Shown in pieces: positions 11,164-54,497 of a stretch of 64,000 nt of DNA (position 1 is the stretch's first letter; each line of letters starts with the position of its first letter). This stretch comes from an archaeon (GTDB lineage Archaea; Aenigmatarchaeota; Aenigmatarchaeia; GW2011-AR5). Both the position numbers and the translations under genes were made by a program. The stretch is taken from assembly GCA_028279825.1 (NCBI GenBank), contig JANQNA010000003.1, positions 30,518 through 94,517 of the forward strand, written 5' to 3'. The notes below the pieces were generated by a model that worked only from the letters and a program-made list of their open reading frames with translations, made no database searches and was not told the origin of the DNA.

Positions 11164-11270
11164 ATCACTCAAACCCCTCTTGGACCACAATCTTTTTAAC
11201 TTCCATACATTACGTAACAATTACGGTGATAAGCTTATAAACCTTTTTGTTACTATTTAGTAGAACATAG

Positions 11271-11567: not shown

Positions 11568-11572
11568 GTCAT

Positions 11573-33081: not shown

Positions 33082-33088
33082 ATAATCA

Positions 33089-33943: not shown

Positions 33944-35724
33944 AACTCACCCTCAATTCTTCCTAGGAGGAAATCGGGCGAAAGATAGAACATACTTATT
34001 ACCGAGGCAATTTTTCTGTAGTCTGTTATTCCACGATTCACGAGCCATTTAAGGACCTTTGCACGGTTTTCGATTTCTCGCTTCACGTCTCTCTCAGTAA
34101 GTCCAACAGTATCTGAGATTTTTTTCAACAATGCACTCTTTCCTTCAAAATGAAACTTGTCGCGTTTTGCATCCCATGTCAACAGTTCATTTGTTATAGG
34201 TAATTTTGCCTCTTGGTCGTAGCCAACCACTTCCGTTACAGAGAAAATGCGTCTGTTGTACCTTCTGCCCTGCTTGACACGTTTTATAAAAACAATAAGG
34301 TCAAGGTTCTGCAGCAGGTTAGGTGCCAGACTTATAGGCGGTGATGTCATTCTGTCGAAAAGTTTGGAAAAGTTTTCCGCGTGTATTGTTGACAAACCAG
34401 GGTGACCTACAGCCATTTGCTGGAAAAGCACGTAGGCCTCTTTACCTCTGACTTCCCCTACTATGATATAATCAGGTCTCTGCCTCAGAGACTCCCTTAA
34501 AAGTTCAAACATGTCTACTCTCCCTTCCTCAGATATTGCCGTTCTGGCAACTTCAGGCACCCAGTGTGCGTGAGGGAGTCTGAGTTCGGACGTATCTTCT
34601 ATGCTTATGATTTTCATCTGAGGTTTGATGAACAGTGAGAGAACGTTAAGCAGCGAAGTTTTTCCGGAAGCAGTTCCGCCTGAAATAAGCACAGACGAGC
34701 CGTGTTCTATCAGGAACCAGAAGTACGCCATCATTCTTAGATCAGATGTACCATACCGTATCGTATCAACTGGTGTCATAGGTTTATCTGAGAACATTCT
34801 TATTGTAAAGTTACTGCCGTTTCTTGCTATGTCACTTCCAAGCGTTGCCTGCAGCCTTGCACCGCCCGGCAGGGTACCATCCAGTAATGGTCTTGCGACA
34901 GATATCGTCTTTCCTGATCTCTCTGAAAGTTTGTTTACAAACAGATCAAGCTCTTCAGAATCCTTGAATACCATATTGGTTCTTATCGAACCGAACTGCG
35001 GGTTTCTGTGATACACGTATATAGGAATATTGACGCCGTCACACGAGATATCCTCTATGTTCTTGTCATTCATGAGAGGTTCCAGTTTTTCTAGACCGAT
35101 GAAATCTCTTATTACGTAGTACCTTAGTATTTCTTCAGTATTTTTATCTACCTTGACTCTGAAGTATGCAAGTGCTCTCTCAAAGGCAGAGTTGAGGTAG
35201 CTAACAGCATCAGTTTTTCTTATCTGTGAGAAGTTTATGTCAAGTTTCTCCTGTATGTATTCTTTTATCTCCATCAGAGTTTTCTGGTTGTTGCCTATAG
35301 GCGGCTCCACAACGTTATAGATGACTTCACCGCTTTTTTTATCAAAGAAAATATGTGCGTAAGACATGACCTTCTCACCTTTCTTTGGCTCTGAAGGCAT
35401 AAGCGGATACTTCATATTCACAAGCCGCACGTCATCTATCTCGGGTATTGTAAGCTTTTCAGTATGAATCTTTGGGATTGTTATACCCTCAATTTCGGAT
35501 TTTTCTGCTATCTTCCTTGGTTCCCTGTGTCCATGGACAAATCTGCGCTGATCTATAAATTGTATGAAAGAACCGCCTGGAGGTTGCTGTTGCTGCTGTT
35601 GCATAGGCTGCTGCCGCCCGGTTATCACACCTGTCTTTATGGCGGCAATTTCCTCTGGAGTTCTTGGTTTTAGTACGAATTTCTTCCCGCCCTGTATTTT
35701 CAGCAAAAGTTTTTTATTGACCAT
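33940..35724 (-). CDS. Type IV pilus assembly ATPase (FlaI/TadA/VirB11 family) with N-terminal poly-Q tract
   Basis: Walker A ISGGTASGKTS, Asp box and His box (EDTSELRLPHAHWV), plus an N-terminal QQPMQQQQQQPPGG. Confidence 0.85.
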   Translation of the reverse strand: MVNKKLLLKIQGGKKFVLKPRTPEEIAAIKTGVITGRQQPMQQQQQQPPGGSFIQFIDQRRFVHGHREPRKIAEKSEIEGITIPKIHTEKLTIPEIDDVRLVNMKYPLMPSEPKKGEKVMSYAHIFFDKKSGEVIYNVVEPPIGNNQKTLMEIKEYIQEKLDINFSQIRKTDAVSYLNSAFERALAYFRVKVDKNTEEILRYYVIRDFIGLEKLEPLMNDKNIEDISCDGVNIPIYVYHRNPQFGSIRTNMVFKDSEELDLFVNKLSERSGKTISVARPLLDGTLPGGARLQATLGSDIARNGSNFTIRMFSDKPMTPVDTIRYGTSDLRMMAYFWFLIEHGSSVLISGGTASGKTSLLNVLSLFIKPQMKIISIEDTSELRLPHAHWVPEVARTAISEEGRVDMFELLRESLRQRPDYIIVGEVRGKEAYVLFQQMAVGHPGLSTIHAENFSKLFDRMTSPPISLAPNLLQNLDLIVFIKRVKQGRRYNRRIFSVTEVVGYDQEAKLPITNELLTWDAKRDKFHFEGKSALLKKISDTVGLTERDVKREIENRAKVLKWLVNRGITDYRKIASVISMFYLSPDFLLGRIEGEL

Positions 35725-39066: not shown

Positions 39067-39214
39067 TGGGCCGCGTGAGATTTGAACTCACGACCTCCTG
39101 CTAACCTAGATCACAACGATGTAAACTGTATGACGCATCTTGAATGCGTCTTTCTACTTCTTATCGTTGTGTGTCATATAAGACAGGTGCTCTACCAGGC
39201 TAAGCTAGCGGCCC
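39067..39214 (-). tRNA. Intron-containing tRNA, anticodon reads TAT (tRNA-Ile UAU) with a 74-nt structured intron at 37/38
   Basis: Reverse complement: GGGCCGC-TA-GCTT-AGCCTGGTA-GAGC-A-CCTGT-CTTATA|intron|A-GCAGG-AGGTC-GTGAG-TTCAAAT-CTCAC-GCGGCCC-A. Exon nt 32-35 CTTA pair with the intron 3' end TAGG to form the 4-bp BHB central helix. The intron holds a 9-bp helix CACAACGAT/ATCGTTGTG and an inner hairpin GACGCAT-tcaag-ATGCGTC. Confidence 0.7.
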
Positions 39215-40051: not shown

Positions 40052-40699
40052 GTGAAAATCGTTGTAAAAGTTGGCGGTTCGACATCTATAAATGAAGATG
40101 GTCCTGATTTTTCCTATTTCTCAAAATTAGTCCCGGTTCTGAACAGAATAAAAAAGGAACACCAGTTGATTGTGTCTATAGGCGGCGGCGGATTGACACG
40201 TAGCTATCACAGATCCATAGAAAAGTTCGCGATGAACAGCCATGAAAAAGAACAGATTTTCATAGAGCTCATCAAATCCAACGTTCTGACACTTGCCTAC
40301 CTTTTGAAGACAAAGCCGATTTTTTCTCTGGACGAAGTCAAGAGAAATACATCCGGTGTTATCGGAGGAATAAAGCCCGGGAGAAGCACAGATGCTAACG
40401 CGGCCATAGCCGCGCAAAAGATCCAGGCAGATGTTTTCGTAAAACTCACCGATGTTAACGGTATATACAGCAAAGATCCTAACAAATTCATCGGTGCAAA
40501 AATAATAAGCAGAATGAGCTTTTCCGATTTGCAAAAATACTCTACCAAGGGAACCCCTAACAACTACGGTATACTTGACGCCACGGCCATAAAGACACTT
40601 TCAAAGAACAAGATAATAACACATATAATCAACGGAAAGAACCCTGATAATATACTAAAAGTGCTGAAAGGAGCTTCTATAGGAACCACTGTTTCTTAA
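40052..40699 (+). CDS. pyrH: Uridylate (UMP) kinase, archaeal type
   Basis: Amino-acid-kinase fold with KVGGS, SIGGGGLTRSY, GGIKPGRSTDANAAIAA and VNGIYSKDPNKF, ending GTTVS. The 215-aa length fits archaeal PyrH rather than IPK. Confidence 0.75.
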   Translation: MKIVVKVGGSTSINEDGPDFSYFSKLVPVLNRIKKEHQLIVSIGGGGLTRSYHRSIEKFAMNSHEKEQIFIELIKSNVLTLAYLLKTKPIFSLDEVKRNTSGVIGGIKPGRSTDANAAIAAQKIQADVFVKLTDVNGIYSKDPNKFIGAKIISRMSFSDLQKYSTKGTPNNYGILDATAIKTLSKNKIITHIINGKNPDNILKVLKGASIGTTVS

Positions 40700-40925: not shown

Positions 40926-41030
40926 GGGCCTGTAGTCTAGTGGTATGACGTCTGCTTCACACGCAGGAGACCGGCGGTTCGATAGCTGTATGAGAGCTAC
41001 GCTCTCCAGTCGAGTGTCCGCCTGGGCCCA
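40926..41030 (+). tRNA. tRNA-Val (CAC) with a ~32-nt insert in the T-loop
   Basis: GGGCCTG-TA-GTCT-AGTGGTAT-GAC-G-TCTGC-TTCACAC-GCAGG-AGACC-GGCGG-TTCGAtag[CTGTATGAGAGCTACGCTCTCCAGTCGA]gtgt-CCGCC-TGGGCCC-A. The insert block is shared with tRNA-Arg. A T-run follows. Confidence 0.75.
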
Positions 41031-41059: not shown

Positions 41060-41530
41060 ATGAATGATGAAGAAACCACAGAAATTCTCAGAAAACCCTC
41101 AAGAGATACTGTTCAGACACCGTCATGGCAACACAGAGAAATGCCACACGACGGAGTTTATCTCTCTTTATACGACAAAGAAGGCCAAGATTATTCCTTA
41201 CAAATAACAGTTAATGGAGAGGGTTCAGAGGAAGCTGCCCTTGGGCACGCACGTGCATTCTCAGTATTTTATGGTACTGGTGGCTCTGATTCAAAACACA
41301 TAGGTGGTGTAGGATTTAGCTCAGTAGCCTACTCACGAAGAGGTCGATTAAGCCCGCTAAGACGAGCAGAAATAGAAGAAGTTTACTGTTTTTTCGCGAG
41401 GGAAATTGAAGATTTTCCAGACAGAGATCTTCTATCTACAATAAAAAAGGATCTAGAAAAACTGTATAGAGAAGCCGTGAAAAATTTAGACGGAGACTGG
41501 GGAGCCCACGAACCTACTTCTTCTCAATAA
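41060..41530 (+). CDS. Hypothetical protein
   Basis: 156 aa with no recognised motif. Confidence 0.4.
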   Translation: MNDEETTEILRKPSRDTVQTPSWQHREMPHDGVYLSLYDKEGQDYSLQITVNGEGSEEAALGHARAFSVFYGTGGSDSKHIGGVGFSSVAYSRRGRLSPLRRAEIEEVYCFFAREIEDFPDRDLLSTIKKDLEKLYREAVKNLDGDWGAHEPTSSQ

Positions 41531-41954
41531 TTATTTCTGTTAAGTTATCACCACGTCGCATATGCTTAGTGAAATGATATGTCCAATTCCCCAGAAGATA
41601 GTCAACTTTGAAATCCAGGAATGTTTTATCAAATAATTCAGGATCGATCTTTCCCTTTAACCCGGGAAAAGGATCTGTGTGAAATCTGTAAACTATTCTT
41701 TTTTCTGTGACCTCAGGGAATTCTACATGAAGTCCAACGGAAGCATCTCGTTCACCTACACATCTTGCAAAATCCTCCGGTATACCCTTAGTGAATCCCA
41801 TTTTATCATAAGCAGGACTCAGTCTACTCGCAAATAGCGTTTTCATATAATTCAGAGCCCCAGCTTCCCCAACTTCTTCTAATTTCTTAAGAAAACGCTG
41901 TTCATAGTCAGAGAAAAACTCTGTATTGTAAGGAACGGTGGGTTTGAAATCCAT
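41514..41954 (-). CDS. Hypothetical protein
   Basis: 146 aa, convergent with the previous gene. No recognised motif. Confidence 0.4.
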   Translation of the reverse strand: MDFKPTVPYNTEFFSDYEQRFLKKLEEVGEAGALNYMKTLFASRLSPAYDKMGFTKGIPEDFARCVGERDASVGLHVEFPEVTEKRIVYRFHTDPFPGLKGKIDPELFDKTFLDFKVDYLLGNWTYHFTKHMRRGDNLTEIIIEKK

Positions 41955-42004: not shown

Positions 42005-42985
42005 ATGAAAGCAACAGCTGTGGCGAATGCCAACATAGCTTTGGTAAAGTACTGGGGCAAGAGAAACAAGGAGCTAATATTACCTTTCAATTCTAGTATT
42101 TCCATGGTTTGTGATGGTCTTCACACAAAAACAACTGTGGAATTTGGGGACTATGATGAAGATTCCATAAAGATAAACAATGAAGAACTTCAGAAAGACG
42201 AAAAAGACGTATTAGGTCATGTTGAAAGAATCCGCAAGATAGCGGGCATAAACAAAAAGGCAAAGGTAATATCAGAAGCAAACTTCCCTGTGGCCGCAGG
42301 CCTAGCTTCAAGCGCTTCTGGCTTGGCAGCTCTTACGCTAGCAGCCAGCAAGGCAGCCGGTTTGGATCTAAGTGAGCGTGAGCTCACAATGCTGGCACGA
42401 CAGGGATCGGGAAGCGCTTCGCGCTCCATAAGCGAAGGCTTTGGTATCTGGAACAAGGGTGAGAAAGAAGACGGTACAGATTCTTTCGCCGAAACTATCG
42501 CGCCAAAGGCACACTGGCCCGAATTCCGTATGATTGCCTGTATTGTCAGCGAGGCCAAAAAGGCGACAAGCTCCAGAGCAGGCATGAGCCAAACTGTAAA
42601 GACAAGTCCTTACTACGAGGGATGGTTGAAGACCATTGATCAGGATATTGAAAACATGAAAGAAGGTATAAAGAAAAAAGACTTCACACTTGTTGGGTCT
42701 ACCGCTGAAGCAAACGCATTGAAGATGCACGCAACCATGATTACAACAGATCCGTCAATAATATATTGGGCACCTGGAACAATGGAGATCATGCACTCTA
42801 TACTCCAATGGCGCGAAGAAGGATTGGAATCATATTTCACAATGGACGCAGGTCCTCAGGTAAAAATACTTTGTTTAGAGAAAGATCTGGAAGAGATACA
42901 AAAAAGACTGTCCAATCTAGTAAAGAAAACAATTGTCTGCAAACCAGGCGACGGCGCAAGGCTAACAGAAGACCACCTATTCTAA
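42005..42985 (+). CDS. mvaD: Diphosphomevalonate decarboxylase family (MVD/PMD)
   Basis: GHMP-superfamily MVD signatures NIALVKYWGKRN and AAGLASSASG. 326 aa. Confidence 0.8.
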   Translation: MKATAVANANIALVKYWGKRNKELILPFNSSISMVCDGLHTKTTVEFGDYDEDSIKINNEELQKDEKDVLGHVERIRKIAGINKKAKVISEANFPVAAGLASSASGLAALTLAASKAAGLDLSERELTMLARQGSGSASRSISEGFGIWNKGEKEDGTDSFAETIAPKAHWPEFRMIACIVSEAKKATSSRAGMSQTVKTSPYYEGWLKTIDQDIENMKEGIKKKDFTLVGSTAEANALKMHATMITTDPSIIYWAPGTMEIMHSILQWREEGLESYFTMDAGPQVKILCLEKDLEEIQKRLSNLVKKTIVCKPGDGARLTEDHLF

Positions 42986-43512
42986 TGATAACAGATAATC
43001 TCGAAGAACTTTTTGATGTCGTGGACGAAAACAATAACGTAGTGGGCAAAGCAACACGCGGAGAAGTTCATACAAAAGGTTTATGGCATCGCGCAATTCA
43101 TGTATTAATTCTGAACTCAAAAAAGGAAATACTTCTCCAAAAACGCTCAATGACAAAGGAATTATATAAGGGCTACTGGATTGATACAGCTGGCCATGTT
43201 GATAGCGGCGAAAGCTACGAAGAGACTGCCAAGCGAGAAATGAAAGAGGAAATTGGTATTGACACAGAGTTAGAGCATTTATTTGATTGCACAAAATACA
43301 CAGGCAACGACAATGAGTTTATACGTGTATTTTTGGGTCATCATGATGGACCTTTTGAAATTAATAAAAACGAGATGGATTTTGTCAAATTTTTTCCCAT
43401 AAAGAAAATTTTTGAAATGATCAAAACAGAAAAAATAACACCGGGTACTTTAAGTATACTTAAGGAGCTGGAAAAACATCCGGAACTCTTAAAAAGACTA
43501 ATGGGAGAGTGA
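42985..43512 (+). CDS. IDI-like Nudix hydrolase lacking the IDI catalytic Cys
   Basis: The start ATG overlaps the MVD stop (TAATG). HRAIHVLILNS...QKRSMTKELYKGYWIDTAGHVDSGESYEETAKREMKEEIGI resembles the IDI-1 core but has TAGH instead of C(C)xHP. Confidence 0.65.
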   Translation: MITDNLEELFDVVDENNNVVGKATRGEVHTKGLWHRAIHVLILNSKKEILLQKRSMTKELYKGYWIDTAGHVDSGESYEETAKREMKEEIGIDTELEHLFDCTKYTGNDNEFIRVFLGHHDGPFEINKNEMDFVKFFPIKKIFEMIKTEKITPGTLSILKELEKHPELLKRLMGE

Positions 43513-43516
43513 TAGT

Positions 43517-44455
43517 ATGAGTGGAAAAGGTATAGGATTTGGTAAGACTATTCTATTTGGAGAGCATTTTGTTGTTTACGGGCTTCCAGGTATTGCATCA
43601 GCAATAAGTGATTTGACAACAGCGGAAGTTGAAGAAGGAGAAAAGTTTGAACTTGTTGATAACAGGCCGGCTGTTGAAGGTTACAAAGTAAAAAAGCAGG
43701 AAGAGATTTCCAGGGAACTAGATTCTATTTTCGAATTCATGAAGATTGATCGTGAAAAACCACCTTTGAAAATAACACTGGCAGGAAACCTTGAGTGTGC
43801 TTCCGGTATAGGCGCTAGCGCCGCTCTGGCAAGCAGTATCGCGCGTGCATTGAGTGAACATTTGTCGCTAAATCTGACAGATGACCAGATAAATGAAATA
43901 GCATTTGAAGGTGAGCGTGGAGGATCAGGAACACCAAGTGGTATAGACAACACATGCTCAACATACGGCGGCATGATTACTTTTGAGAAGAATCTTTCTG
44001 GCGGACCAAACAAGATAGAACACATAGAAGTCGGGAAGCCTTTTGAGATTGTTATGGTAAACACTGGAATAACCCAGGAAACAAAGAAAGTCGTGGCTGA
44101 CGTAAGAGCTGAAAAGGAAAAGGACCCCGAAAAGTATGAGAAAATATTCTCGGATTACAAAAAAACTGTCGACGAGGCTGTTGTTTCTCTAAAGGAAGGC
44201 AACATCGAGAACGTCGGTAAATTGATGGACAAGAATCAGGAATTGCTTAGACAAATAACAGTAAGCTGCCCTGAAGTTGAAAATATAGTAAAGATGACCA
44301 AAGAAAAAGGCGCACTCGGAGCAAAACTAACAGGTACAGGAAGAGGCGGTCTTGTTATTTGTTTGTCTCCTGGTAAAGATGTTACAAAAACAATAGTAGA
44401 GTCAGCTAAAGCAGAAAATCTAAAAGTAAATGTCACGACTCTAGGGAAAAAATAG
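43517..44455 (+). CDS. mvk: Mevalonate kinase
   Basis: GHMP motifs KTILFGEHFVVYG, ASGIGASAA and TGTGRGG. 312 aa. Confidence 0.85.
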   Translation: MSGKGIGFGKTILFGEHFVVYGLPGIASAISDLTTAEVEEGEKFELVDNRPAVEGYKVKKQEEISRELDSIFEFMKIDREKPPLKITLAGNLECASGIGASAALASSIARALSEHLSLNLTDDQINEIAFEGERGGSGTPSGIDNTCSTYGGMITFEKNLSGGPNKIEHIEVGKPFEIVMVNTGITQETKKVVADVRAEKEKDPEKYEKIFSDYKKTVDEAVVSLKEGNIENVGKLMDKNQELLRQITVSCPEVENIVKMTKEKGALGAKLTGTGRGGLVICLSPGKDVTKTIVESAKAENLKVNVTTLGKK

Positions 44456-44456
44456 G

Positions 44457-45482
44457 CTATTTTTTTGCCGTAGTCATGTAAAGCAGATCATTCCCCGAAA
44501 GCAGCCGCTCTGAAGTTACATGATTAAAACCAACTTCAAATAATTCTCTTGCATATTGCAGTGCAGGTCTATGCCCTTCTAACAACAAAATATCATCCTC
44601 TGGTCTGAATTCACCTGCTTCCTGTGCCTTTCTTCTTACATCTGCCCAGCCTCCCCAGAAATTTCGTATTGTTGCATTGGCTTCAAATTCAGCAGAACTC
44701 CCAACTCTTCCTGGGGATTCTAAAGCCTTTGGATAGGCCCTGGCAAAATCATCAAGATCACTATGTTTTGTCTCCCAATCAAACCTTTTTAAAAATTCAA
44801 AAACACGATGAGGATGCTCCCACATTGAATTGTGCCAGTCCGGCAAAAGAACTGAACCACCATGTTTTGTCACATGATAAAGAACTCTAAATGGTGTATC
44901 AAGGTAAGCATGATGGTGAATAGCAGCAACAGCACTTACTATATCCTGTGAGCCACGAGGTGTAAAATCTCTTGCATCTATGTCCCTTGCTGCATGTGTA
45001 GTGAAGTCTTTATCTTTTTTTAGACCCAGCTCTTCCAAATCAGCTGTCATTTTATCAAGTCGTTCTTGTGATGGCTCTATTAGTGTTGCATATACACGTT
45101 CTATGTCAATATTATCCGCCAGAAGTTTTTCATAAACATTAACAGTACTAACACCTGCACCACATTCCAGATAATTTACTGTACCCATCATTTCTTGAAC
45201 AAGTTTTGATACAGCAGCTGCATTTGCATTCCGCAATATTTGAGGGAAATTTTGCAAACCGGCAGCTTCTGTAGCCTCTATAACATATTTCATCTGCCTT
45301 GGCGAACCGCCTTCCCATTCCATTCTGTAAGCATCATCACTTCTTTCTCTGAACTCACCCTCAGGAATACCCCAGTTAGAATAAGCATAAGATGGCACAC
45401 GCAAAGCAGAACCAAGTCTGACAGGCATAAGCGGCGAAAAAACTTCATCACTAGCAGGATTAAATTCAGGCATGTCTACCAT
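44457..45482 (-). CDS. Putative class I SAM-dependent methyltransferase-like protein
   Basis: Motif I-like LECGAGVST. 341 aa. Family not resolved. Confidence 0.45.
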   Translation of the reverse strand: MVDMPEFNPASDEVFSPLMPVRLGSALRVPSYAYSNWGIPEGEFRERSDDAYRMEWEGGSPRQMKYVIEATEAAGLQNFPQILRNANAAAVSKLVQEMMGTVNYLECGAGVSTVNVYEKLLADNIDIERVYATLIEPSQERLDKMTADLEELGLKKDKDFTTHAARDIDARDFTPRGSQDIVSAVAAIHHHAYLDTPFRVLYHVTKHGGSVLLPDWHNSMWEHPHRVFEFLKRFDWETKHSDLDDFARAYPKALESPGRVGSSAEFEANATIRNFWGGWADVRRKAQEAGEFRPEDDILLLEGHRPALQYARELFEVGFNHVTSERLLSGNDLLYMTTAKK

Positions 45483-45969
45483 TCCACTCTATGACATCCA
45501 ATAGAACACTGCACGCCGGAGTAAATTCTTTTTTCCGTGCAAATGCTTCATCTTCCAACATGTATTGCGGTTTTCTAGCATCTGACTCAGGGTTTTCTTC
45601 AGGCTCCTGACTATCATCTTTTGGCACAAGACCTACTAACCTACCCCTGTATTCCTTTTCACTGTCCTTATAAATCATAAGAAAAGATCCGTCGTCGAAT
45701 GATTGTACAATAATTTCTGGCCTGTCCCATATATGTCTATCTGGTCTAAGAATATGCAATGGTGGTCGATATGTTATTATACCAGTTTCTTCTCTCACTT
45801 CATGCATGGCAGCCTCAGCGTAAGTTTCTCTGCGTAAACGACCGCCACCAGGTATAACCAGTTGACCTCGTCTCTCAGGATCATCTTCTTTGTAACGAGT
45901 TGCAACAAGAAGTTGCCTACCCCCACCTAAGTCTCGTGATACATATCCCCATGCGACAGATTTAGCCAT
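45466..45969 (-). CDS. Nudix hydrolase
   Basis: Nudix box GGGRLRRETYAEAAMHEVREETGI. Confidence 0.75.
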   Translation of the reverse strand: MAKSVAWGYVSRDLGGGRQLLVATRYKEDDPERRGQLVIPGGGRLRRETYAEAAMHEVREETGIITYRPPLHILRPDRHIWDRPEIIVQSFDDGSFLMIYKDSEKEYRGRLVGLVPKDDSQEPEENPESDARKPQYMLEDEAFARKKEFTPACSVLLDVIEWNGRHA

Positions 45970-46019
45970 ACCCAGACGTTATTAGAAATCTTTTTAAGTG
46001 TTGTAAAGACAGCTATTCT

Positions 46020-47147
46020 ATGCACTTTTCAGCACCTGGAAAACTGGTAGTTTCGGGTGAATGGGCGATACTGGAAGTCGGAAACAGGGGATTGGTTGCT
46101 TCTGTGAACAACCGCGTTCACGTAGATATTGATAAAAGCGATGATATAGTTATCACAGCCAGTGAGTTTGGCATTGAAGACGCGAAAGCAAAGTACAGTA
46201 ACGGGCAGTTAACTGTGGACGTTGATGAAGAAAAGAAGAAAACACTTAACCTTCTTTCAAGGGCAATTGCCACGTCTTTGAAGTATCTGGAAGAAAAAGA
46301 AATTAAGATAAAGACGTTCAAGATAAAGACGTCCAGTAAAGATACGCAGTTTGACGTTAACGGGGAAGTCAAAAAGATCGGTTTTGGTTCTTCGGCAGCC
46401 GTCACTGTTGCCGCTATAACAGCTGTTTTGGATTTTCATGGCTACGCCTATCAAAAAGATGAAATATACAAGCTCGCTACAATAGCGCACTTCTACGCAC
46501 AGGGGAAAATAGGATCAGGTTTTGACGTAGCAGCTTCAACATACGGTGGATTGTTTGTTTATTCAAGATTTGATCCAAAATGGTTGACCGAAAAGGTAGA
46601 AGCAGGTGAAAAACTTGGCCTGATCGTAAATGAGAAGTGGCCGGGATTTGTTGCTGAGGTACTGGAAGTTCCGAAAGACTTTCATCTTCTGGTCGGCTGG
46701 ACAAAAGATTCCGCATCAACAAAGGAAATGGTAAAACAGATGAACGTATTCAAGGAAGGTCATAGAGACGTTTATGATAAACACTTCTCTGGCATAGCTG
46801 CCTTGGCAGCTGAAGCCATAACGGCATTCAAAACAAACAACAAAGAAAAGTTTTTGGAGCTTTTGCAAAAAAACGAACAACTACTTTCAGATTTGGGCAA
46901 AGCCAGCGGTGTCAACATAGAAACGCCTGAACTGAAAACTCTATCGGAAGAGGCCGCTAAGGCCGGCGCAGCCGGTAAGCTCTCAGGCGCCGGAGGCGGT
47001 GATTGCGGTATTGCCGTATGCTTTGACGGAGCCGTAGCAAAAAAGATAAAAGAAGCATGGAAAACAGCAGGGTTGCATCTTGTAGACGTGACTATAGACA
47101 GAGAGGGTGTTAAAAAAGATAAATCTGTTTTTAACCTTTTCCATTAA
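46020..47147 (+). CDS. Phosphomevalonate kinase (GHMP/ERG8 type)
   Basis: APGKLVVSGEWAILE, GFGSSAAVTVAAI and SGAGGGDCGIA. 375 aa. Confidence 0.75.
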   Translation: MHFSAPGKLVVSGEWAILEVGNRGLVASVNNRVHVDIDKSDDIVITASEFGIEDAKAKYSNGQLTVDVDEEKKKTLNLLSRAIATSLKYLEEKEIKIKTFKIKTSSKDTQFDVNGEVKKIGFGSSAAVTVAAITAVLDFHGYAYQKDEIYKLATIAHFYAQGKIGSGFDVAASTYGGLFVYSRFDPKWLTEKVEAGEKLGLIVNEKWPGFVAEVLEVPKDFHLLVGWTKDSASTKEMVKQMNVFKEGHRDVYDKHFSGIAALAAEAITAFKTNNKEKFLELLQKNEQLLSDLGKASGVNIETPELKTLSEEAAKAGAAGKLSGAGGGDCGIAVCFDGAVAKKIKEAWKTAGLHLVDVTIDREGVKKDKSVFNLFH

Positions 47148-47155
47148 TTCTAATT

Positions 47156-47671
47156 ATGCACGAAGTAATTCTTGTTGACAGCGAAGATAATGAACTTGGT
47201 ACGGCTGAAAAATATCCTCCACACAGGCATCCGATGAAGTTACACAGGGCATTTTCTGTATACGTACTTAACGGACAAGGCCAATTGTTGATACACAAGA
47301 GAGCAGGTGACAAAAGAACTTGGCCAGGATTCTGGACAAATACATGCTGCTCACATCCAAGACCAAACGAGCCTGTGGAAATAGGCGCAGCCCGAAGACT
47401 AAGGGAAGAACTGGGTTTTGAATGTGATCTTGAGTTTCTCTTCAAGTTTGAATATCAGGCAAAATATAACGAAGAGTATGGTGAATATGAATTAGATCAT
47501 GTTTTCCTTGGACATTTCAACGGTGAAGTGGTGCCAGATCCAACAGAAGTTGAAGAGTTCAAGTTCGTTGACTTGGGTTTTCTGGAAAAAGATATGAAAG
47601 AAAATCCTGAAAAATATACTCCATGGTTCAAGATATCATTCCCAGGAGTTCTGGAACATATAAAAAAATAA
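47156..47671 (+). CDS. idi: Isopentenyl-diphosphate delta-isomerase type 1 (Nudix-fold IDI-1)
   Basis: LHRAFSVYVLN, KRTWPGFWTNTCCSHPRPNE and EELG. The catalytic Cys is present and the size is as for E. coli Idi. Confidence 0.8.
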   Translation: MHEVILVDSEDNELGTAEKYPPHRHPMKLHRAFSVYVLNGQGQLLIHKRAGDKRTWPGFWTNTCCSHPRPNEPVEIGAARRLREELGFECDLEFLFKFEYQAKYNEEYGEYELDHVFLGHFNGEVVPDPTEVEEFKFVDLGFLEKDMKENPEKYTPWFKISFPGVLEHIKK

Positions 47672-47700
47672 ATTTAAACCATTGAATTCAATTTTTCTAT

Positions 47701-49359
47701 ATGCCTGATTTTTCTTCCGCCATGCAGGAATGGGGACAACTCCTGGGAAGTGATCGTGTTAGTTCTGACGGAAACGTTCTGGATAGATACGGAACCAACA
47801 TTAACGCTTTGTATAGAAGAGTTCGGGGTGTTTTATATCCTGAAACCACCAAAGAAGTCCAGGAAGTTGTAAGAATAGCACGGAAACGTGGTGTATCTCT
47901 TTATCCTGAGAGTACGAAACAGAATCACGGCCTGGGCGGTGCAACACCCGTGCAGGACGACTGTGTTGTTGTTGATCTTGGCAGAATGAATAAAATCAGT
48001 GTCAACGAAGAATACCACTACGCTTTAATCGAGCCGGGTGTGACCCAGGGGCAGCTGTATGAACACTTGGAGCAGGATGGAATTCCACTGATGTTTGATG
48101 CAACAGGCGCAGGAACAAGGGCAGGGTTTGTTGGAAACGCCGCAGAAGGTGGTGTCGGTTATTTTTCGTTACGTTTTGATCAGGTTTCGGATTATACAGC
48201 TGTACTTGGCACAGGTGAAATTTTTGAAACAGGCTTTCCGTCTGGATCAAGTGTAAAATATCTCTTCAGGTATCCTCCCGGAATGTTCCTGGATGGTTTG
48301 TTTAAGCATTCCAATCTTGGAATAATAACAAAAATAAAGCTTGGTCTTATGCCACATCCGGAATACCGGTCAATGTTGTTATGTAGCATAGGTAGCGAAG
48401 AAAGTTTCCCATACCTGGTTGACGGATTAAGAAAGCTAAGAGATCAGGGAACCATACAGACAGTTGTGAAGATTTCCAATGATTCTAGGTCAAGAATCAG
48501 CATAGCACCACTTTTGTATAGAGAACTTATGCAAAGAGGAACCTATGGCGACAGTCAGAGTACCAGAACATTTGTAGAGAATACTCTTAGGAGAAAATCC
48601 GGACCCTGGAGTGCTATAACAAGTCTTTTGGGAACCCGCAGCGAGGTAAGGAGCAAACAGAGAGAGATAAGAAAAGTGCTTGGTAACGTGGGAAAGGTGG
48701 AGTTCATCACAGACAACGGGCTTGACCTGAACGGTGGACGTTTACAGGTGGGACTTGACTGGGGCAGAGGATTAATGCAAGCAGGGCGGTTTCTTTCACG
48801 GCCGTTTGGCGACCGTCCAAAGAGATTTATTGACACTTACGAGTCTTTAATGGAGTCACTATTGCCTTTGTATCATCTTGCTACCAGAGGCAAACCAACC
48901 GACGCGCCTTTGTTGAGCCTGTATTGGCCCCTGGGTGACATTCCTGAAAACTGGCAATATCCAGAACAGATAGCAAATTGTGGTATGCAATTTAAGCTGC
49001 CTCTAATACCAATGAATGGAATGGAATCAAGGGAAGCAGTAAGAAAAATAAGAGAAACGATAGAGAAGTATGGTTTTGAACCGGCAATTACTCTCAACAC
49101 GGTCGAAAAAGCTTTTGATACTGTCACAAGCATACCATTCAACAGAAGTGACGCAGAAGAGGTTGAAAGGGCCAGTGAATGCGAGGAAGAGCTTTTCCAT
49201 GAACTCGCAGAATTCGGAGATCCTGATTATCGTTTTGGGATCGGCACCATGGGAAGAATGTCTGGTACAGTTCATCCGTACTATCGGATGTTGTACAGAG
49301 CGCTGAAGAATGAATGCGATCCCGATTATATCCTGGCACCTGGAAGATATGAATTATGA
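47701..49359 (+). CDS. FAD-linked oxidase (FAD_binding_4 / PCMH-VAO family)
   Basis: N-terminal PCMH-type FAD-binding domain (YPETTKEVQEVVRIARKRGVSLYPESTKQNHGLGGA ... VVVDLGRMNKI). 552 aa. Substrate unknown. Confidence 0.7.
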   Translation: MPDFSSAMQEWGQLLGSDRVSSDGNVLDRYGTNINALYRRVRGVLYPETTKEVQEVVRIARKRGVSLYPESTKQNHGLGGATPVQDDCVVVDLGRMNKISVNEEYHYALIEPGVTQGQLYEHLEQDGIPLMFDATGAGTRAGFVGNAAEGGVGYFSLRFDQVSDYTAVLGTGEIFETGFPSGSSVKYLFRYPPGMFLDGLFKHSNLGIITKIKLGLMPHPEYRSMLLCSIGSEESFPYLVDGLRKLRDQGTIQTVVKISNDSRSRISIAPLLYRELMQRGTYGDSQSTRTFVENTLRRKSGPWSAITSLLGTRSEVRSKQREIRKVLGNVGKVEFITDNGLDLNGGRLQVGLDWGRGLMQAGRFLSRPFGDRPKRFIDTYESLMESLLPLYHLATRGKPTDAPLLSLYWPLGDIPENWQYPEQIANCGMQFKLPLIPMNGMESREAVRKIRETIEKYGFEPAITLNTVEKAFDTVTSIPFNRSDAEEVERASECEEELFHELAEFGDPDYRFGIGTMGRMSGTVHPYYRMLYRALKNECDPDYILAPGRYEL

Positions 49360-49438
49360 AACTTGGTTTTAAAAAATTCAAAAACGTTTTTATAGTACGT
49401 AATTTAATTGTAATTGATACGTAATTGGTAACATTCTG

Positions 49439-50362
49439 GTGTTTATATTGGTTGATATAGTATACAGAAGAGCTAGACCGGGCGATGAAAAGGGTTTAAA
49501 GGAACTGTATGATGATGCGTATGGCGGCGGTTATTCTTTAACAGGTTTCACAACACATGAATCCGTGAGAGCACTTATTGAACAGGGCAGTTACATATGG
49601 TATGTGGCTCTTTCTGACGGGAATATAGTTGGCTCAACAGTAGCTGTTCCAGACGATTGGAATAGAAGCTTTGAGATGGGAAGATCTGCCGTAAAAAGAG
49701 AGTATAGACGTTTGGAAGTAGCAAAAAAAACTGCCGAACTTGCGAGAGACGAAGCTATTGAAAGAAGATACGATATAGGATGGGGGAGCCTTAGAAATAC
49801 TGCCATGCTTAGAGTGTCTGTAAACGACAAGATGACTGTGGTAGGCCATACTTCAGAGCACAGCCCATCTGGAGAAAGAGAAACTCATCTAATATGTGAA
49901 AGAATGACTGAGGATGCAAAAAGGCGCAGGGTTGTCCCTGCCAACAGTTATTTGTATGATTGGTTTGTAGTGGAACGCATACAGGATCAGATGGAATTAG
50001 AAAATAGGGAAGGTGAGTATCCACCCATAGATGTTGTGGGTAAAGGAGCAAACAGCGAAATTAGTGTGGCATTGCGTATGCATTTGGAAGACAATTCAGG
50101 AACCGTTACAGGAATTGAGGGAAGTCTGCCTGAACATATGAAGGTCGTTCTTCTTGCCGACAGGACAGAAGATATGGAATTGTTAAGAGGGTACGGTTTC
50201 AGGATTACTGCATTCATGCCCGGCTGGTATCTTTTGGGCAGGAACAGATACGACTGTGTTGTTATGGAAAATTGTTGTGTAGAACCAAGATCAGAAGATG
50301 AGAAAATGGATACAATGATACGCGAATTTACTAAGGGCTTTAGCTTTAAAAAAGAAGATTAG
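49439..50362 (+). CDS. Hypothetical protein with N-terminal GNAT-like region
   Basis: RRARPGDEKGLKELYDDAYGGGY ... YIWYVALSDGNIVGSTVAV is acetyltransferase-like. 307 aa. Confidence 0.4.
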   Translation: MFILVDIVYRRARPGDEKGLKELYDDAYGGGYSLTGFTTHESVRALIEQGSYIWYVALSDGNIVGSTVAVPDDWNRSFEMGRSAVKREYRRLEVAKKTAELARDEAIERRYDIGWGSLRNTAMLRVSVNDKMTVVGHTSEHSPSGERETHLICERMTEDAKRRRVVPANSYLYDWFVVERIQDQMELENREGEYPPIDVVGKGANSEISVALRMHLEDNSGTVTGIEGSLPEHMKVVLLADRTEDMELLRGYGFRITAFMPGWYLLGRNRYDCVVMENCCVEPRSEDEKMDTMIREFTKGFSFKKED

Positions 50363-51102
50363 GGAGCAGGCGGCATTCTTGCGGTAGACCTCGCAAGTAT
50401 ATTGTACGCAGTACCTTTTCTATCGTCACCGCCATGGACTATAGCCCCTTCATTGAAAAATACTTTACCATTATGATGGCGTGGTATTCTATAAATACCG
50501 GAATTCTCTATCAGTTCCCTAAATTCATCACGCGTATATCCGGCTTTCAGAGAGCTTTCGAATATATGTTGACCTTCAGGACCGTATACGCCAAACTCAG
50601 ACATAATGTAAGCAAGTTCTTCTTCAGAACTGGGCCTCTGTATATCTTGCAGGTAGAGTACCCCACCGTCAAGTTTTGTTGCTCTGTACATATTACGAAG
50701 TATTTTTTCGGCCTCTTTCGGTTCTACTTCATGAGGAATAACATGCAGTGATGTGACCAAGTCAAAATCTTGAAAATCCATACGAGAGGCATCCAACAAT
50801 TGGAAAGATAAACGAGAACGTCCTTCTGAAAGTTCTTCAGCTTTTTCAATCATCTCAGGTGATATATCTATACCTACAATATTTGCTTTAGGACACATAT
50901 CAGCAATTTCTCTTTCAACAAAACCCGGACCACAACCTACACCCAGAACCCTGTCCGGTTTTTTCCCTGTCCAGCTATTGTACGCAAAAAGAGCCCGCGT
51001 AGCAAAATCCTGGGTTACAAATCTTTGGTGTAGCGGGTGCCTTGCCATTTCTATATAAGCTTCTGCGTAGCCTTCTCTCTCCGGTTCAGGAGTTCTATCC
51101 AT
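50359..51102 (-). CDS. Class I SAM-dependent methyltransferase
   Basis: Motif I VLGVGCGPGF and motif II ANIVGIDIS. The probable start is MDRTPEPE; the ORF-track start overlaps the upstream gene. Confidence 0.7.
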   Translation of the reverse strand: MDRTPEPEREGYAEAYIEMARHPLHQRFVTQDFATRALFAYNSWTGKKPDRVLGVGCGPGFVEREIADMCPKANIVGIDISPEMIEKAEELSEGRSRLSFQLLDASRMDFQDFDLVTSLHVIPHEVEPKEAEKILRNMYRATKLDGGVLYLQDIQRPSSEEELAYIMSEFGVYGPEGQHIFESSLKAGYTRDEFRELIENSGIYRIPRHHNGKVFFNEGAIVHGGDDRKGTAYNILARSTARMPPAP

Positions 51103-51769
51103 GTTTTGGCAACCCCAGGTATGGCGTGAATTTTGAGCCCAAGCCTTTGAAGCCGGGTTCATCTTTTACCAGAAAACTATTGCTCTTGAAATTAGCATCA
51201 CTTTTGCTCCAGCTTTCCACTGGCTTAACAACAAACTCACAGCTTGACGCACCGGAAGCAACGCACTTTGTTTCCAGGCACAGCATTTTCTTGCCAGTTA
51301 TAACTTCAAAGGCACCGGCCCACATGCCCATGAGCCAGTAATCAACAGGTTTTTTCTGCAGACCGAAAAACCTTTTGTACTCCTCGGCGAAAGGAGAAAC
51401 CCCTTTGTACATGAAAATATTGTTCTTGAAATCCATTCTGATAATATTGAAACTTCCCAGACCCAGTACCTCAGTCTGTCCCTGGTTGAATATAGTAAGG
51501 CTCTGTTTCTCTTTCAGAGTTTTCGCATAACCAAATCTCTCGTTTATTATTCTTGTTCCTATTTCCGCCTGGAATTTTGCCACATGGTACCTTATCCTGT
51601 TTGCCTCAGACTTACAACTCTTCTCTACCAACTTATGATAATAAAGCTGAATGTAGATGGGGTCTATGAATGCTGGGTTTCCCCAGATCAGGAACTTGCC
51701 CCTGTCGTGTTTTATTGCCTTGAATTTCATAACCCTCTGAAGTATCTTCGGGGGTGCTCTAAATGCCAT
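51095..51769 (-). CDS. V4R-like (hydrocarbon-binding) domain protein, tentative
   Basis: C-terminal Cys motif CLETKCVASGASSCEF. 224 aa. The assignment is by memory of the family only. Confidence 0.35.
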   Translation of the reverse strand: MAFRAPPKILQRVMKFKAIKHDRGKFLIWGNPAFIDPIYIQLYYHKLVEKSCKSEANRIRYHVAKFQAEIGTRIINERFGYAKTLKEKQSLTIFNQGQTEVLGLGSFNIIRMDFKNNIFMYKGVSPFAEEYKRFFGLQKKPVDYWLMGMWAGAFEVITGKKMLCLETKCVASGASSCEFVVKPVESWSKSDANFKSNSFLVKDEPGFKGLGSKFTPYLGLPKHG

Positions 51770-51773
51770 ACTA

Positions 51774-52601
51774 TCACTTACCTATATCATGAATAATCAT
51801 GCCAGTTTTACTTATCTCAACGGGATGCACATCCTCGTTGTTTATTGTATTTCGCATTTTCCTGATTAACAGGTTCCTTGAAAACTGGCCGCCCATGGAT
51901 TCAAAATTAATGAGCAAAATACCGTCTGCAACAAACTCTGATATGGTATCTCTCGAAATATATCTGCCTCTCTCCGCGGACTCGGATATCAACAGTGTTG
52001 TGCAGTCATTTTCCATTAAACGAAGCGAATCAACAAAATTGTAGATGAATCTCTTGACTATCAGGTCTCCCATTATAGGCGGTGAAAAGAAGGAATTTTT
52101 CTTCATTATATCAACCAACGCCATGTCCTTCACATAATTATAAACAGGAGCATTTATTGCCAGCGAAGATATCGAGTCAACCACGAGCCTTTTTATTTTA
52201 TTCTCGGAAACGTTGTTGATTAATTCATCCAGTGCAGCGAAATCCAGATTCTTTATTGGCATATGCTTTATTTCCAGCATACCCTCGTTTATTAGCGGTT
52301 CAAGGTCCCATCCAAACTGCAGTGCCTGTTCCTTGAGTGATTCCACAGGTTGTCCAAAACTAACATATAACCCTTTTTCTTTGAACTCAGTAACGCCGTT
52401 GTACAGATACTCCAGACTAAAAATAGTCTTGCCTGTTCCCGGAGTTCCTGTTAATAGAATAGTACTGCCGCGCGGAAATCCGCCCTCAATCAGCTCGTCA
52501 AAACCCTTTATACCTGTTTTAGTGCGATCTTTAACCATTAAATCACTACTAGTAATATCCCTCAAGCAGTTTATAAAAGTTCTAGAATCAATCTTTCCCA
52601 T
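51774..52601 (-). CDS. KaiC-like / RecA-superfamily ATPase
   Basis: GIKGFDELIEGGFPRGSTILLTGTPGTGKT (Walker A in KaiC/RadA context). 275 aa. Confidence 0.7.
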   Translation of the reverse strand: MGKIDSRTFINCLRDITSSDLMVKDRTKTGIKGFDELIEGGFPRGSTILLTGTPGTGKTIFSLEYLYNGVTEFKEKGLYVSFGQPVESLKEQALQFGWDLEPLINEGMLEIKHMPIKNLDFAALDELINNVSENKIKRLVVDSISSLAINAPVYNYVKDMALVDIMKKNSFFSPPIMGDLIVKRFIYNFVDSLRLMENDCTTLLISESAERGRYISRDTISEFVADGILLINFESMGGQFSRNLLIRKMRNTINNEDVHPVEISKTGMIIHDIGK

Positions 52602-52914: not shown

Positions 52915-53871
52915 ATGAAAAAGGCATTTTTGGCACGCTCTCCGTTGGGGTTTTTCGCTTTCGATCCTGCAGGAAAGCTGTTGTTTTACGAGATATTCAC
53001 AGACGTGGGAAGATTCTTAGCCAGACAAATAGATAGAGATTTTCTCAAAAAACTGCCTGATTATGAAATAAAAGAGGATCCAAAAGCCTATACTTTTCTG
53101 CGTAAGCATATACGCGAATATGCCAGAAATTTTGCTAATTTGAACGATGCACAATTCAACGAATTGCTTACAAAATTTTCCATAGAACTGTCAACAAGAA
53201 GACTTGTAGGTGCTACAGGTCGCGACAAGTTAATAGTCCAGGCTGTCAGGTCTTTGGATGATTTGACAAAGACAATAAACGTGTTTTCTGAGCGTCTTTA
53301 CGAGTGGTATTCTTTGCATTATCCGGAAATGAAGAATGTCAATGTTACTGATCTAGTTGCAAAACACGGTAAGCGCGAGAATTTTCCATCTTTCAAAAGC
53401 AGCACTGGTGTGCCATTAAACGAAGCGGATGAACTGGCTCTGAGAAAGTATGCCTATACAATACAAAATCTTTCCAGAGATAAACGGGATCTAGAGAATT
53501 ACATCAAGAATTCTATGCACGAAGTGGCAAAGAATCTTTGTGCACTTACAGACCCCCTTCTTGCAGCAAGGATAATGGCATATGCAGGATCTTTAGAAAA
53601 GTTGGCAAGAATGCCTGCATCTACGATTCAATTGCTTGGCGCAGAGAAAGCGCTGTTCCGTCATTTACACACCAGAGGCAAAAGTCCGAAATACGGTTTA
53701 CTCTTTAACTCGATATTAATTCAAAGAGCCAAAAACGAACACAAGGGAAAAGTGGCCCGTATATTATCGTCCAAACTGATGATGGCCGTGCGTATTGACT
53801 TCTATTCAGGAAGAGACGATACGGAGAAACTGAAAAAAGAACTGAAAGAAGAAATAGAGGCGATTAAATGA
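52915..53871 (+). CDS. nop5: C/D box snoRNP protein Nop5 (Nop56/58)
   Basis: NOP domain with a coiled coil, directly upstream of fibrillarin in the conserved arrangement. Confidence 0.88.
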   Translation: MKKAFLARSPLGFFAFDPAGKLLFYEIFTDVGRFLARQIDRDFLKKLPDYEIKEDPKAYTFLRKHIREYARNFANLNDAQFNELLTKFSIELSTRRLVGATGRDKLIVQAVRSLDDLTKTINVFSERLYEWYSLHYPEMKNVNVTDLVAKHGKRENFPSFKSSTGVPLNEADELALRKYAYTIQNLSRDKRDLENYIKNSMHEVAKNLCALTDPLLAARIMAYAGSLEKLARMPASTIQLLGAEKALFRHLHTRGKSPKYGLLFNSILIQRAKNEHKGKVARILSSKLMMAVRIDFYSGRDDTEKLKKELKEEIEAIK

Positions 53872-54497
53872 AGCAGATATCACATAATGTTTACAAAGAC
53901 GGGAACAAGATCTACACAAAGGCGAGAATAAAGAAAAAAATTTACGGTGAAAAGATCCTGGGAGACAAACGTGAGTGGGATCCAAAAAGGAGTAAGCTTG
54001 GCGCTGCCGTACTAAAGGGTTTGAAAGTATCCATAAAGGACGGCGATATTGTTCTTTATCTCGGGGCATCAACAGGAACAACCGTATCACATGTCAGCGA
54101 TATTGTAGGTAATGGTTACGTTTATGGTATTGAATTTGCTGAAAGAGTGTTCCGCTCTTTAGTCGAGCTGGCTAAGGACCGCAAGAACATAGCGGCACTG
54201 AAGGAAGACGCAAGAAAAATGGATTATTCATGGATAGAACAGTGCGATGTTGTTTTTTGTGACATTGCTGACCCTCAACAAACAGACATTGCTATACGCA
54301 ATGCAAAAGAGTTTCTCAAAAAGAATGGATTGCTGCTTATTTCTGTAAAATCCCAGAGTATTGACGTAACAATGAAACCAAAAGATGTTTACGAGAAAGA
54401 AAAGAAAAAGGTAGAGAAGGCGGGGTTCTCTGTAATTCAACTTATTGATCTTGAACCTTACGAAGAAAAACATACAATGATTGTAGCGCAGAAATGA
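53868..54497 (+). CDS. flpA: Fibrillarin rRNA/tRNA 2'-O-methyltransferase
   Basis: VLYLGASTGTTVSHVSDIVG ... GYVYGIEFAERVFRSL. Confidence 0.9.
   Translation: MKQISHNVYKDGNKIYTKARIKKKIYGEKILGDKREWDPKRSKLGAAVLKGLKVSIKDGDIVLYLGASTGTTVSHVSDIVGNGYVYGIEFAERVFRSLVELAKDRKNIAALKEDARKMDYSWIEQCDVVFCDIADPQQTDIAIRNAKEFLKKNGLLLISVKSQSIDVTMKPKDVYEKEKKKVEKAGFSVIQLIDLEPYEEKHTMIVAQK

Follow-up and report, generated by a model that had tools for sequence, protein, structure and literature searches.

The stretch at positions 42005-51769 of an Aenigmatarchaeota contig, lying in the 64-kb window analyzed here (that is, the whole stretch of 64,000 nucleotides), carries genes of the lower mevalonate pathway, two Nudix hydrolase-type genes, two methyltransferase genes, an oxidase gene, a GNAT-like acetyltransferase gene and a V4R-domain gene, followed by a KaiC-like ATPase gene (Table 1). 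The original prediction, made from the letters of this DNA, read the stretch as one biosynthetic cluster in which tailoring-type enzymes would modify an isoprenoid. Here we report that this 10-kb stretch is likely a juxtaposition of independent units and no single biosynthetic cluster. The mevalonate half is an operon with a conserved accessory set, and the position of the oxidase half beside the mevalonate genes is a coincidental adjacency.

Table 1. Features of the mevalonate and oxidase halves and of their flanks (positions in the window; model cut-offs in parentheses)
Feature	Position	Strand	Identification
tRNA-Val(CAC)	~40926-41030	+	~32-nt non-canonical T-arm intron; recovered by ARAGORN only after in-silico splicing
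unk146, conserved protein	41514-41954	-	no Pfam or NCBIfam match; divergent from MVD, 50-bp gap
MVD (DMD), diphosphomevalonate decarboxylase	42005-42985	+	TIGR01240, 307.6 bits (171)
NudA, IDI-fold Nudix hydrolase, 175 aa	42985-43512	+	Nudix box; best structure match PDB 2fkb (YfcD)
MVK, mevalonate kinase	43517-44455	+	TIGR00549, 226.5 bits (163)
MTl341, Aenigmatarchaeota-specific class I S-adenosylmethionine (SAM)-dependent methyltransferase	44457-45482	-	class I methyltransferase fold, high confidence; Pfam score below threshold
NudB, Nudix protein	45466-45969	-	Pfam NUDIX, 36 bits; box GX5EX7HEVREETG, near-canonical (R to H)
PMK, phosphomevalonate kinase, Gram-positive/bacterial type	46020-47147	+	TIGR01220, 257.3 bits (166)
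IDI1, type 1 isopentenyl-diphosphate isomerase	47156-47671	+	NF002995, 171 bits (127); TIGR02150, 145 bits
Oxidase, FAD-linked oxidoreductase of the PCMH/VAO clade	47701-49359	+	PF01565 (FAD_binding_4), 92.9 bits; first gene of the inserted block
GNAT-like acetyltransferase (GNATl), rare ~300-aa family	49439-50362	+	Acetyltransf_1, 25.9 bits (20.7)
SAM-MTase, generic class I SAM methyltransferase	50359-51162	-	Methyltransf_25/31/11 above threshold; last gene of the KaiC-V4R-MTase unit
V4R-domain protein, predicted small-molecule sensor	51095-51769	-	PF02830, 38.8 bits (31)
KaiC-like ATPase, single domain	51774-52601	-	PF06745, 178 bits
S17e, ribosomal protein, 63 aa	52588-52779	-	PF00833, E 5.7e-16; between KaiC and Nop5; absent from the earlier gene list
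Nop5 and fibrillarin	52915-54497	+	Pfam Nop, Fibrillarin; directly after IDI1/PMK in relatives

Gene families were called with Pfam and NCBIfam/TIGR models by comparing scores with curated cut-offs, and with PDB matches for remote homology. Every gene of the original prediction lies where it had been placed, and the family searches upheld the family assignments. For synteny we used 80 PMK-centered loci fetched via a PMK alignment from species-representative genomes, chiefly of Aenigmatarchaeota, plus other DPANN archaea and a few bacteria of the candidate phyla radiation (CPR), and compared the window proteins with these loci by tblastn. Counts of MVD and MVK proximity refer to 51 related loci, and counts of downstream content to the 46 loci whose sequence continues for 6 kb or more past PMK. 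Names such as L001 or L005 denote fetched neighborhoods of PMK, oxidase, V4R or other homologs; a single metagenome scan, using the V4R alignment, returned one locus, L089.

The classical lower mevalonate pathway is completely encoded in the window: MVK, PMK and MVD each exceed the curated cut-off, and the isomerase has its catalytic residues, with the catalytic Cys retained in the context TNTCCSHP. The phosphomevalonate decarboxylase model gives MVD a score of 197, far short of the cut-off of 475, and the other alternative decarboxylase models likewise stay far short of theirs. Upper-pathway families (thiolase and the synthase and reductase of 3-hydroxy-3-methylglutaryl-CoA) had no match among the scanned open reading frames (ORFs) of the window. 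MVK would phosphorylate mevalonate and PMK add the second phosphate, MVD would form isopentenyl diphosphate (IPP), and IDI1 would convert this to dimethylallyl diphosphate (DMAPP); the predicted product of the operon is a supply of C5 units for membrane lipids. In related loci, MVD lies less than 5 kb from PMK in 50 of 51 cases and MVK in 47, a clustering of mevalonate genes that far exceeds chance. The clustering was correctly seen in the original prediction, the premise that archaeal mevalonate genes are usually scattered was not: lower-pathway genes of the bacterial/eukaryote type are typically clustered, and the route with PMK and DMD is known in some DPANN archaea (PMC6107057, PMC11052028). 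Positions 42005-47671 constitute the lower mevalonate operon of the bacterial/eukaryote type that Aenigmatarchaeota have inherited vertically.

Nop5, fibrillarin, tRNAs with introns and KaiC-like genes identify the window as archaeal DNA. Homologs of the window PMK at 50-64% identity come almost exclusively from metagenome-assembled genomes of Aenigmatarchaeota; searches of public assemblies for exact copies of the window PMK and oxidase gave no match. Earlier surveys had recorded PMK and DMD as mostly missing from Aenigmarchaeota, and the phylum was reported to be unable to make its own isoprenoid lipids. Because we found 161 PMK-encoding loci in total, this record is contradicted. Contrary to the earlier surveys, the complete lower route of the bacterial/eukaryote type is widespread and syntenic in Aenigmatarchaeota, and the spread of PMK and DMD in this phylum bears on the true degree to which these DPANN archaea depend on a host.

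Within the operon, the MVK of the window is 68-69% identical to the MVK proteins of L013 and L039, and only about 30% identical to those of L005, L007, L021 and L051, the loci with the closest PMK and MVD. This suggests, from protein sequence comparison, that there are two MVK types and that one has replaced the other inside the operon. In CPR loci of Saccharibacteria, Nealsonbacteria and Parcubacteria (L057, L078, L061, L071, L083), PMK is 42-46% identical to the PMK of the window, and MVD and PMK are adjacent in L057, L061, L071 and L078, with L083 showing PMK alone. The CPR loci fit a sharing of the operon between DPANN archaea and CPR bacteria.

NudA belongs to the accessory set of the operon, and its start overlaps the MVD stop codon (TAATG), an overlap rightly reported in the original prediction. 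The protein has a strict Nudix box, G70HVDSGESYEETAKREMKEEIG (GX5EX7REUXEEXGU), and an Ala at the position of the IDI catalytic Cys. It scores below the cut-offs of all its nearest models, with 77 against 152 for NF011922 (YfcD), 71 against 127 for NF002995 (IDI) and 67 against 300 for NF041653; the type 1 isomerase model TIGR02150 gives 56 against 106. Because NudA lies below the first three of these curated cut-offs, we regard it as a subfamily separate from YfcD, IDI and NF041653. About 30 loci have operon-embedded NudA orthologs in which the Nudix box is kept and the Cys is absent. On sequence criteria, NudA is a distinct IDI-fold hydrolase and a fixed member of the operon. Of the three Nudix hydrolases in the original prediction, NudA and NudB have hydrolase-type Nudix boxes, and the third is the isomerase IDI1.

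The IDI-like Nudix hydrolase MM_2582 of Methanosarcina mazei reportedly prefers IPP and DMAPP. We place NudA with the IDI-like Nudix group of this enzyme, which we take to be comparable to NCBIfam NF041653. Because of the preference reported for the M. mazei enzyme, we predict that NudA is a C5-diphosphate phosphatase, a diphosphatase of the IPP/DMAPP type. NudA would then hydrolyze IPP and DMAPP (or mevalonate diphosphate) to the monophosphate, either trimming the pool of C5 diphosphates or supplying dimethylallyl monophosphate (DMAP). In a literature search, we found no description of a Nudix hydrolase embedded in a mevalonate operon. That NudA may control the IPP/DMAPP pool or be a source of DMAP is a testable lead.

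On the opposite strand between MVK and PMK, NudB lies upstream of MTl341 and the two genes overlap, so they are probably co-transcribed. The original prediction described the gene now termed MTl341 as methyltransferase-like, and this stands despite the sub-threshold Pfam score: the protein has a Rossmann-like methyltransferase fold and a glycine-rich SAM motif, as expected of class I. Its structural neighbors are mainly small-molecule C-methyltransferases and include Coq5, geranyl diphosphate (GPP) 2-C-methyltransferase and the C6-methyltransferase of farnesyl diphosphate (C6-FPP methyltransferase). Homologs of MTl341 are present in 13-14 of the 80 loci, and orthologs of NudB (39-48% identity) stand beside them in L037, L054, L079 and L094/L095. 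The two genes are located inside or beside mevalonate clusters, with varying strand and position. In L094, from a distant Aenigmatarchaeote, orthologs of NudB (42%) and MTl341 (43%) are codirectional and adjoin a mevalonate-3-kinase (M3K)-like gene, MVD and a GHMP kinase gene; because of this arrangement, the recurrence of the pair with mevalonate genes extends across rearrangements and pathway variants. NudB-MTl341 is a dispensable accessory pair that accompanies mevalonate genes in a minority of Aenigmatarchaeota. NudB and MTl341 may act on a small molecule related to the pathway. It is a tentative and rather doubtful proposal that NudB, MTl341 and NudA methylate and/or dephosphorylate predicted C5-C10 products of the mevalonate pathway to give a modified building block of a lipid or cofactor, which would amount to an undescribed branch in Aenigmatarchaeota.

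Two further observations concern L094. At 3025-3843, it encodes a 272-aa protein without a Pfam match, which has homologs in L008, L025, L037, L044, L054, L060 and L079 and so occurs alongside MTl341 homologs in eight loci, the window not being among them; this protein may be a third partner of NudB-MTl341. At 6190-7149, an M3K-like paralog (MVD-like_N plus M3K_C) adjoins the canonical MVD and the GHMP kinase gene, and because of this adjacency the L094 cluster mixes elements of the Thermoplasma-type route and the classical route.

The evidence that separates the oxidase half from the operon comes from the junction downstream of IDI1. In the closest relatives (L005, L007, L021, L051, L009, L035 and others), the genes follow one another as unk172, pyrH, unk146, MVD, NudA, MVK, sometimes MTl341, then PMK, IDI1, S17e, Nop5 and fibrillarin. 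The order pyrH, tRNA-Val, unk146, MVD, NudA, MVK, PMK, IDI1, S17e, Nop5, fibrillarin is ancestral. All 46 loci in which 6 kb or more of sequence follow PMK lack genes for the FAD (flavin adenine dinucleotide)-linked oxidase, the GNAT-like protein, the SAM-MTase and the V4R protein. The original prediction had proposed to compare gene neighborhoods and had named orthologous clusters lacking the tailoring genes as a sign of coincidental adjacency; for the oxidase half, the clusters of the relatives are exactly of this kind. Among the 25 loci that hold Nop5, the distance from PMK to Nop5 is 272-4389 bp, mostly 0.8-1 kb, compared with 5768 bp in the window. S17e marks the right edge of the ancestral junction; its gene overlaps the KaiC ORF, taken at its longest, at the 5' end, and relatives have an equivalent small ORF ahead of Nop5.

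Elsewhere the junction holds other genes: in L009 these are ATP-citrate-lyase-like, in L022 they encode a HAD hydrolase and an alpha/beta-hydrolase, in L005 a Nudix and a CYTH protein, in L007 two paired nucleotidyltransferases and in L012 an IDI2-like protein. The L009 genes are three in number (11117-14317, downstream of PMK) and are assigned from citrate synthase C-terminal, CoA-binding/CoA-ligase, and ATP-grasp plus citrate-binding domains; an acetyl-CoA supply beside the mevalonate genes is possible there. Relatives of the window PMK and MVD reach 60-74% identity and the best homolog of the oxidase only 38%, and because of this difference we conclude that the near relatives have no oxidase ortholog. 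At the edges of the block we found no signs of mobile elements, neither flanking repeats nor an integrase, and there is no anomaly in GC content (0.40-0.45 in the block and 0.36-0.45 in its neighbors). Positions ~47701-52538 are a five-gene lineage-specific insertion at a variable junction, inherited separately from the mevalonate operon. In the inserted block, a minus-strand unit of KaiC-like, V4R and methyltransferase genes converges with genes for a flavoprotein of the PCMH/VAO type and a GNAT acetyltransferase.

The core of the inserted block, consisting of a PCMH/VAO-type oxidase, V4R and KaiC-like proteins and usually a FeeM-type N-acyltransferase, recurs away from mevalonate genes. L001, from another Aenigmatarchaeote, has the oxidase and a FeeM-type acyltransferase, with V4R and KaiC-like genes on the opposite strand and aminoacyl-tRNA synthetase genes adjoining. 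L087 and L091 have a polyprenyl synthase, a KaiC-like gene and the oxidase, and on the opposite strand V4R, FeeM and a small ORF; the polyprenyl synthases are 72% identical and the two loci represent one event. In L090, the oxidase is followed by V4R, FeeM and a small ORF, and in the bacterial locus L092 the oxidase is back-to-back with FeeM. L089 has KaiC, V4R, an Acetyltransf_5 acyltransferase and two methyltransferases, and no oxidase. The V4R and KaiC-like proteins of the window are orthologous to their counterparts in L001 and L089, with identities of 45% and 35% for V4R and 37% and 43% for KaiC. Because the oxidase is elsewhere paired with a FeeM-type N-acyl amino acid synthase, we infer a role of the module with an acylated small molecule: it might make, modify or sense a hydrophobic molecule of this kind, with V4R as the ligand sensor and the KaiC-like protein as the transducer. 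V4R domains are known to bind hydrophobic ligands (PMC5847659), and N-acyl amino acid synthases are paired with an oxidative desaturase of the nitroreductase family (PMC12479983). FeeM is missing here, and a different GNAT would stand in its place. A further testable lead is that archaea could use the oxidase-FeeM-V4R-KaiC-like module to produce and detect acylated small molecules.

The oxidase matches p-cresol methylhydroxylase (PCMH; PDB 1wve/1dii) over its full length and in both domains (E 6.5e-51). It keeps the Tyr-Arg pair of the phenolate pocket (DYRFG) and lacks the full Tyr-Tyr-Arg triad: the tyrosine of Gly-Tyr-Gly is a Leu, and 112 of the 120 family members have Met or Leu at this position. 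The segment of the covalent-FAD residue (Tyr384 in PCMH, His422 in vanillyl-alcohol oxidase, VAO) falls in the unaligned stretch between the two HMMER domains. Read by eye, the sequence ~25-30 nt ahead of the oxidase start contains an A/T-rich TATA-like element, and because the same is seen at MVD and PMK, an own promoter of the oxidase is suggested. In the Kiritimatiellia loci L003 and L085, there is a conserved arrangement of a ketoacyl synthase, a TodX/FadL-type outer-membrane channel, a hybrid histidine kinase and the oxidase, which by analogy points to a hydrophobic oxidase substrate.

As to the other proteins of the block, the GNAT-like family has ~130 representative homologs, and its profile matches PDB 3f8k (E 8e-10); no homolog of the window gene is present in any fetched locus. 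We considered whether it is a diverged FeeM (PF21926). There was no Pfam match and no significant BLASTP match to this family, and hhalign gave a probability of 0.3% with the single sequence and of 56% with the family profile, covering the GNAT core only; a FeeM identity was rejected. A single-sequence AlphaFold model of the protein (pLDDT 35) was unusable. FeeM is encoded nowhere in the window. The SAM-MTase reaches no NCBIfam equivalog cut-off and has no homolog in any fetched locus; its start is most likely at M21 (51102), which gives an 8-nt overlap with V4R. Residues C164, C169 and C177 of V4R are invariant across the three aligned V4R proteins. The KaiC-like protein most likely starts at M22 (52538), preceded by GTGAT. 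It is a protein of ~254-275 aa with one domain, and scores 104 against 546 for the circadian double-domain model TIGR02655.

Several observations weigh against the reading of two separately inherited halves or against the role suggested for the second of them. The oxidase starts 29 bp past IDI1 on the same strand, and read-through co-transcription is possible. The motif ATTCT stands 0-6 nt upstream of six starts, namely those of unk146 (41954, minus strand), MVD (42005), NudA (42985), PMK (46020), IDI1 (47156) and GNATl (49439), a start context common to the mevalonate genes and the GNAT-like gene. It precedes none of the 43 other genes of the window, most of which have a Shine-Dalgarno-like GGTGA or GTGAT (GTGAT also precedes the MVK start), and in relatives it was seen only before IDI1 (7 of 20). 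One further lineage, L087/L091, has KaiC and the oxidase codirectional after the polyprenyl synthase, and KaiC-like ATPase genes flank mevalonate genes in L094, L052 and L058; these loci hint at a looser link to isoprenoids. With one Tyr of the phenolate triad missing, the predicted substrate class of the oxidase is uncertain, and with FeeM absent from the window, the function proposed for the module elsewhere may not transfer to it. Such residual links keep a regulatory tie between the halves alive as an improbable option and do not rescue the tailoring-cluster model. That model, in which all of 42005-51769 is one cluster whose oxidase, acetyltransferase and methyltransferases modify a prenylated or isoprenoid molecule from the adjacent mevalonate genes, would account for the codirectional PMK, IDI1, oxidase and GNAT-like genes with gaps of 8, 29 and 79 bp, for the shared ATTCT context and for the oxidase following a polyprenyl synthase in L087/L091. 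We consider it very improbable, however: the four tailoring genes are in none of the 46 orthologous clusters, other relatives have unrelated genes at the junction, L001, L090, L092 and L089 carry the module without any isoprenoid genes, the TATA-like element suggests a separate oxidase promoter, and no terpene synthase or prenyltransferase is present among the scanned ORFs of the window. The original proposal of a tailoring cluster is accordingly not sustained for the oxidase, the GNAT-like protein, the SAM-MTase and V4R; what survives of it is NudA within the operon and the recurring NudB-MTl341 pair. A false lead is thereby averted, as the stretch is no biosynthetic cluster for a modified isoprenoid.

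A functional adjacency of another kind would exist if the oxidase and the KaiC-like/V4R module served to regulate or sense the metabolism of isoprenoids or membrane lipids. KaiC-like genes do lie beside isoprenoid genes in the window, in L087/L091 and in L094, L052 and L058 (as MVD, kinase, unknown ORF and KaiC), and hydrophobic ligands are bound by V4R domains (PMC5847659). Archaeal genomes encode many KaiC-like ATPases, however, and a certain amount of adjacency is to be expected. Identity to the KaiC protein of the window is only 29-31% in L094, L052 and L058, whose KaiC proteins may be paralogs; L001, L089 and L090 have no isoprenoid neighbors, and L087 and L091 count once. This role is quite unlikely. 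For the mevalonate half, the question is whether it goes beyond precursor supply, with NudA, NudB and MTl341 methylating and/or dephosphorylating a pathway intermediate or short prenyl diphosphate (C-methylation of IPP, DMAPP or GPP would be one example) to yield a modified building block, a monophosphate or an alcohol. The return of MTl341 and NudB with mevalonate clusters, even in the M3K-like variant L094, the prenyl C-methyltransferases among the structural neighbors of MTl341, and the place of NudA in the IDI-like Nudix group, whose M. mazei member is said to favor IPP and DMAPP, are consistent with such a side branch, which we rate as unlikely on the whole. The idea in the original prediction that Nudix proteins act on prenyl diphosphates in a cluster extending beyond precursor supply may apply to the left half only, where it is a live lead. 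For the stretch as a whole, we favor an ancestral mevalonate operon next to an unrelated insertion.

The upstream flank is part of the same syntenic region. The mevalonate block does not begin immediately after tRNA-Val, as had been stated; the end of the tRNA gene is 975 bp from MVD, with two ORFs between. The Rfam tRNA model gives this tRNA 23.9 bits, short of the gathering score. Further tRNAs at 39067-39214 (minus strand) and 60142-60254 (plus strand) are 113-148 nt long and hence contain introns. Orthologs of unk146 with 46-59% identity occupy the same position in L005, L007, L009, L014, L021, L022 and L051, and in eight relatives or more the gene and MVD diverge. The other ORF, of 156 aa (41060-41530, plus strand), has no homolog among the fetched loci and is possibly not a real gene. 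The amino-acid kinase at 40052-40699 was considered as an isopentenyl phosphate kinase (IPK) and rejected: it is an archaeal UMP kinase (PDB 2bri, E 4e-28), with an IPK model score of 42 against 120. At 32113-35724 (minus strand), the window encodes two T2SSF membrane proteins together with a type-IV-pilus/archaellum-like ATPase (T2SSE plus PilB3_C), and L087 has a similar pair at a distance of a few kb from its oxidase module.

By comparison to known systems, the operon resembles the mevalonate clusters of Gram-positive cocci, CPR bacteria and some DPANN archaea (PMC6107057, PMC11052028) in that MVK, PMK, DMD and IDI are packed together and PMK fits TIGR01220. It differs in the order MVD, NudA, MVK, PMK, IDI1, in the IDI-fold Nudix gene overlapping MVD, in the type 1 isomerase, and in the opposite-strand pair of Nudix and methyltransferase genes added in some genomes. 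NudA shares with Escherichia coli YfcD (2fkb) and the M. mazei IDI-like Nudix protein the IDI-like fold family, an intact Nudix box and the absence of the isomerase cysteine, but, unlike these, sits within a mevalonate operon.

The oxidase is similar to the p-cresol methylhydroxylase PchF, vanillyl-alcohol oxidase and eugenol oxidase in its FAD_binding_4 domain, its full-length similarity and its Tyr-Arg pair. By contrast with these enzymes, the third phenolate Tyr is replaced in most members of the oxidase family, no cytochrome subunit gene lies alongside, and the partners are FeeM-type acyltransferases, V4R and KaiC-like proteins and no aromatic-catabolism genes. The FeeM/NasY clusters for tyrazolone and stieleriacine (PMC12479983) are comparable in that FeeM is found beside an oxidoreductase in L001, L087, L090, L091 and L092, as NasY is with TyzC-like proteins; here, however, the oxidoreductase is a VAO/PCMH flavoprotein and no nitroreductase, a ThiF-like cyclase is absent, and the window has no FeeM. 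Finally, the archaeal KaiC-like ATPase signaling hubs (Makarova et al. 2017, cited in PMC5847659) likewise have a single-domain KaiC-family ATPase directly beside a small sensor-domain protein, whereas the partner in the present block is a V4R protein and the pair is tied to an oxidase and an acyltransferase.

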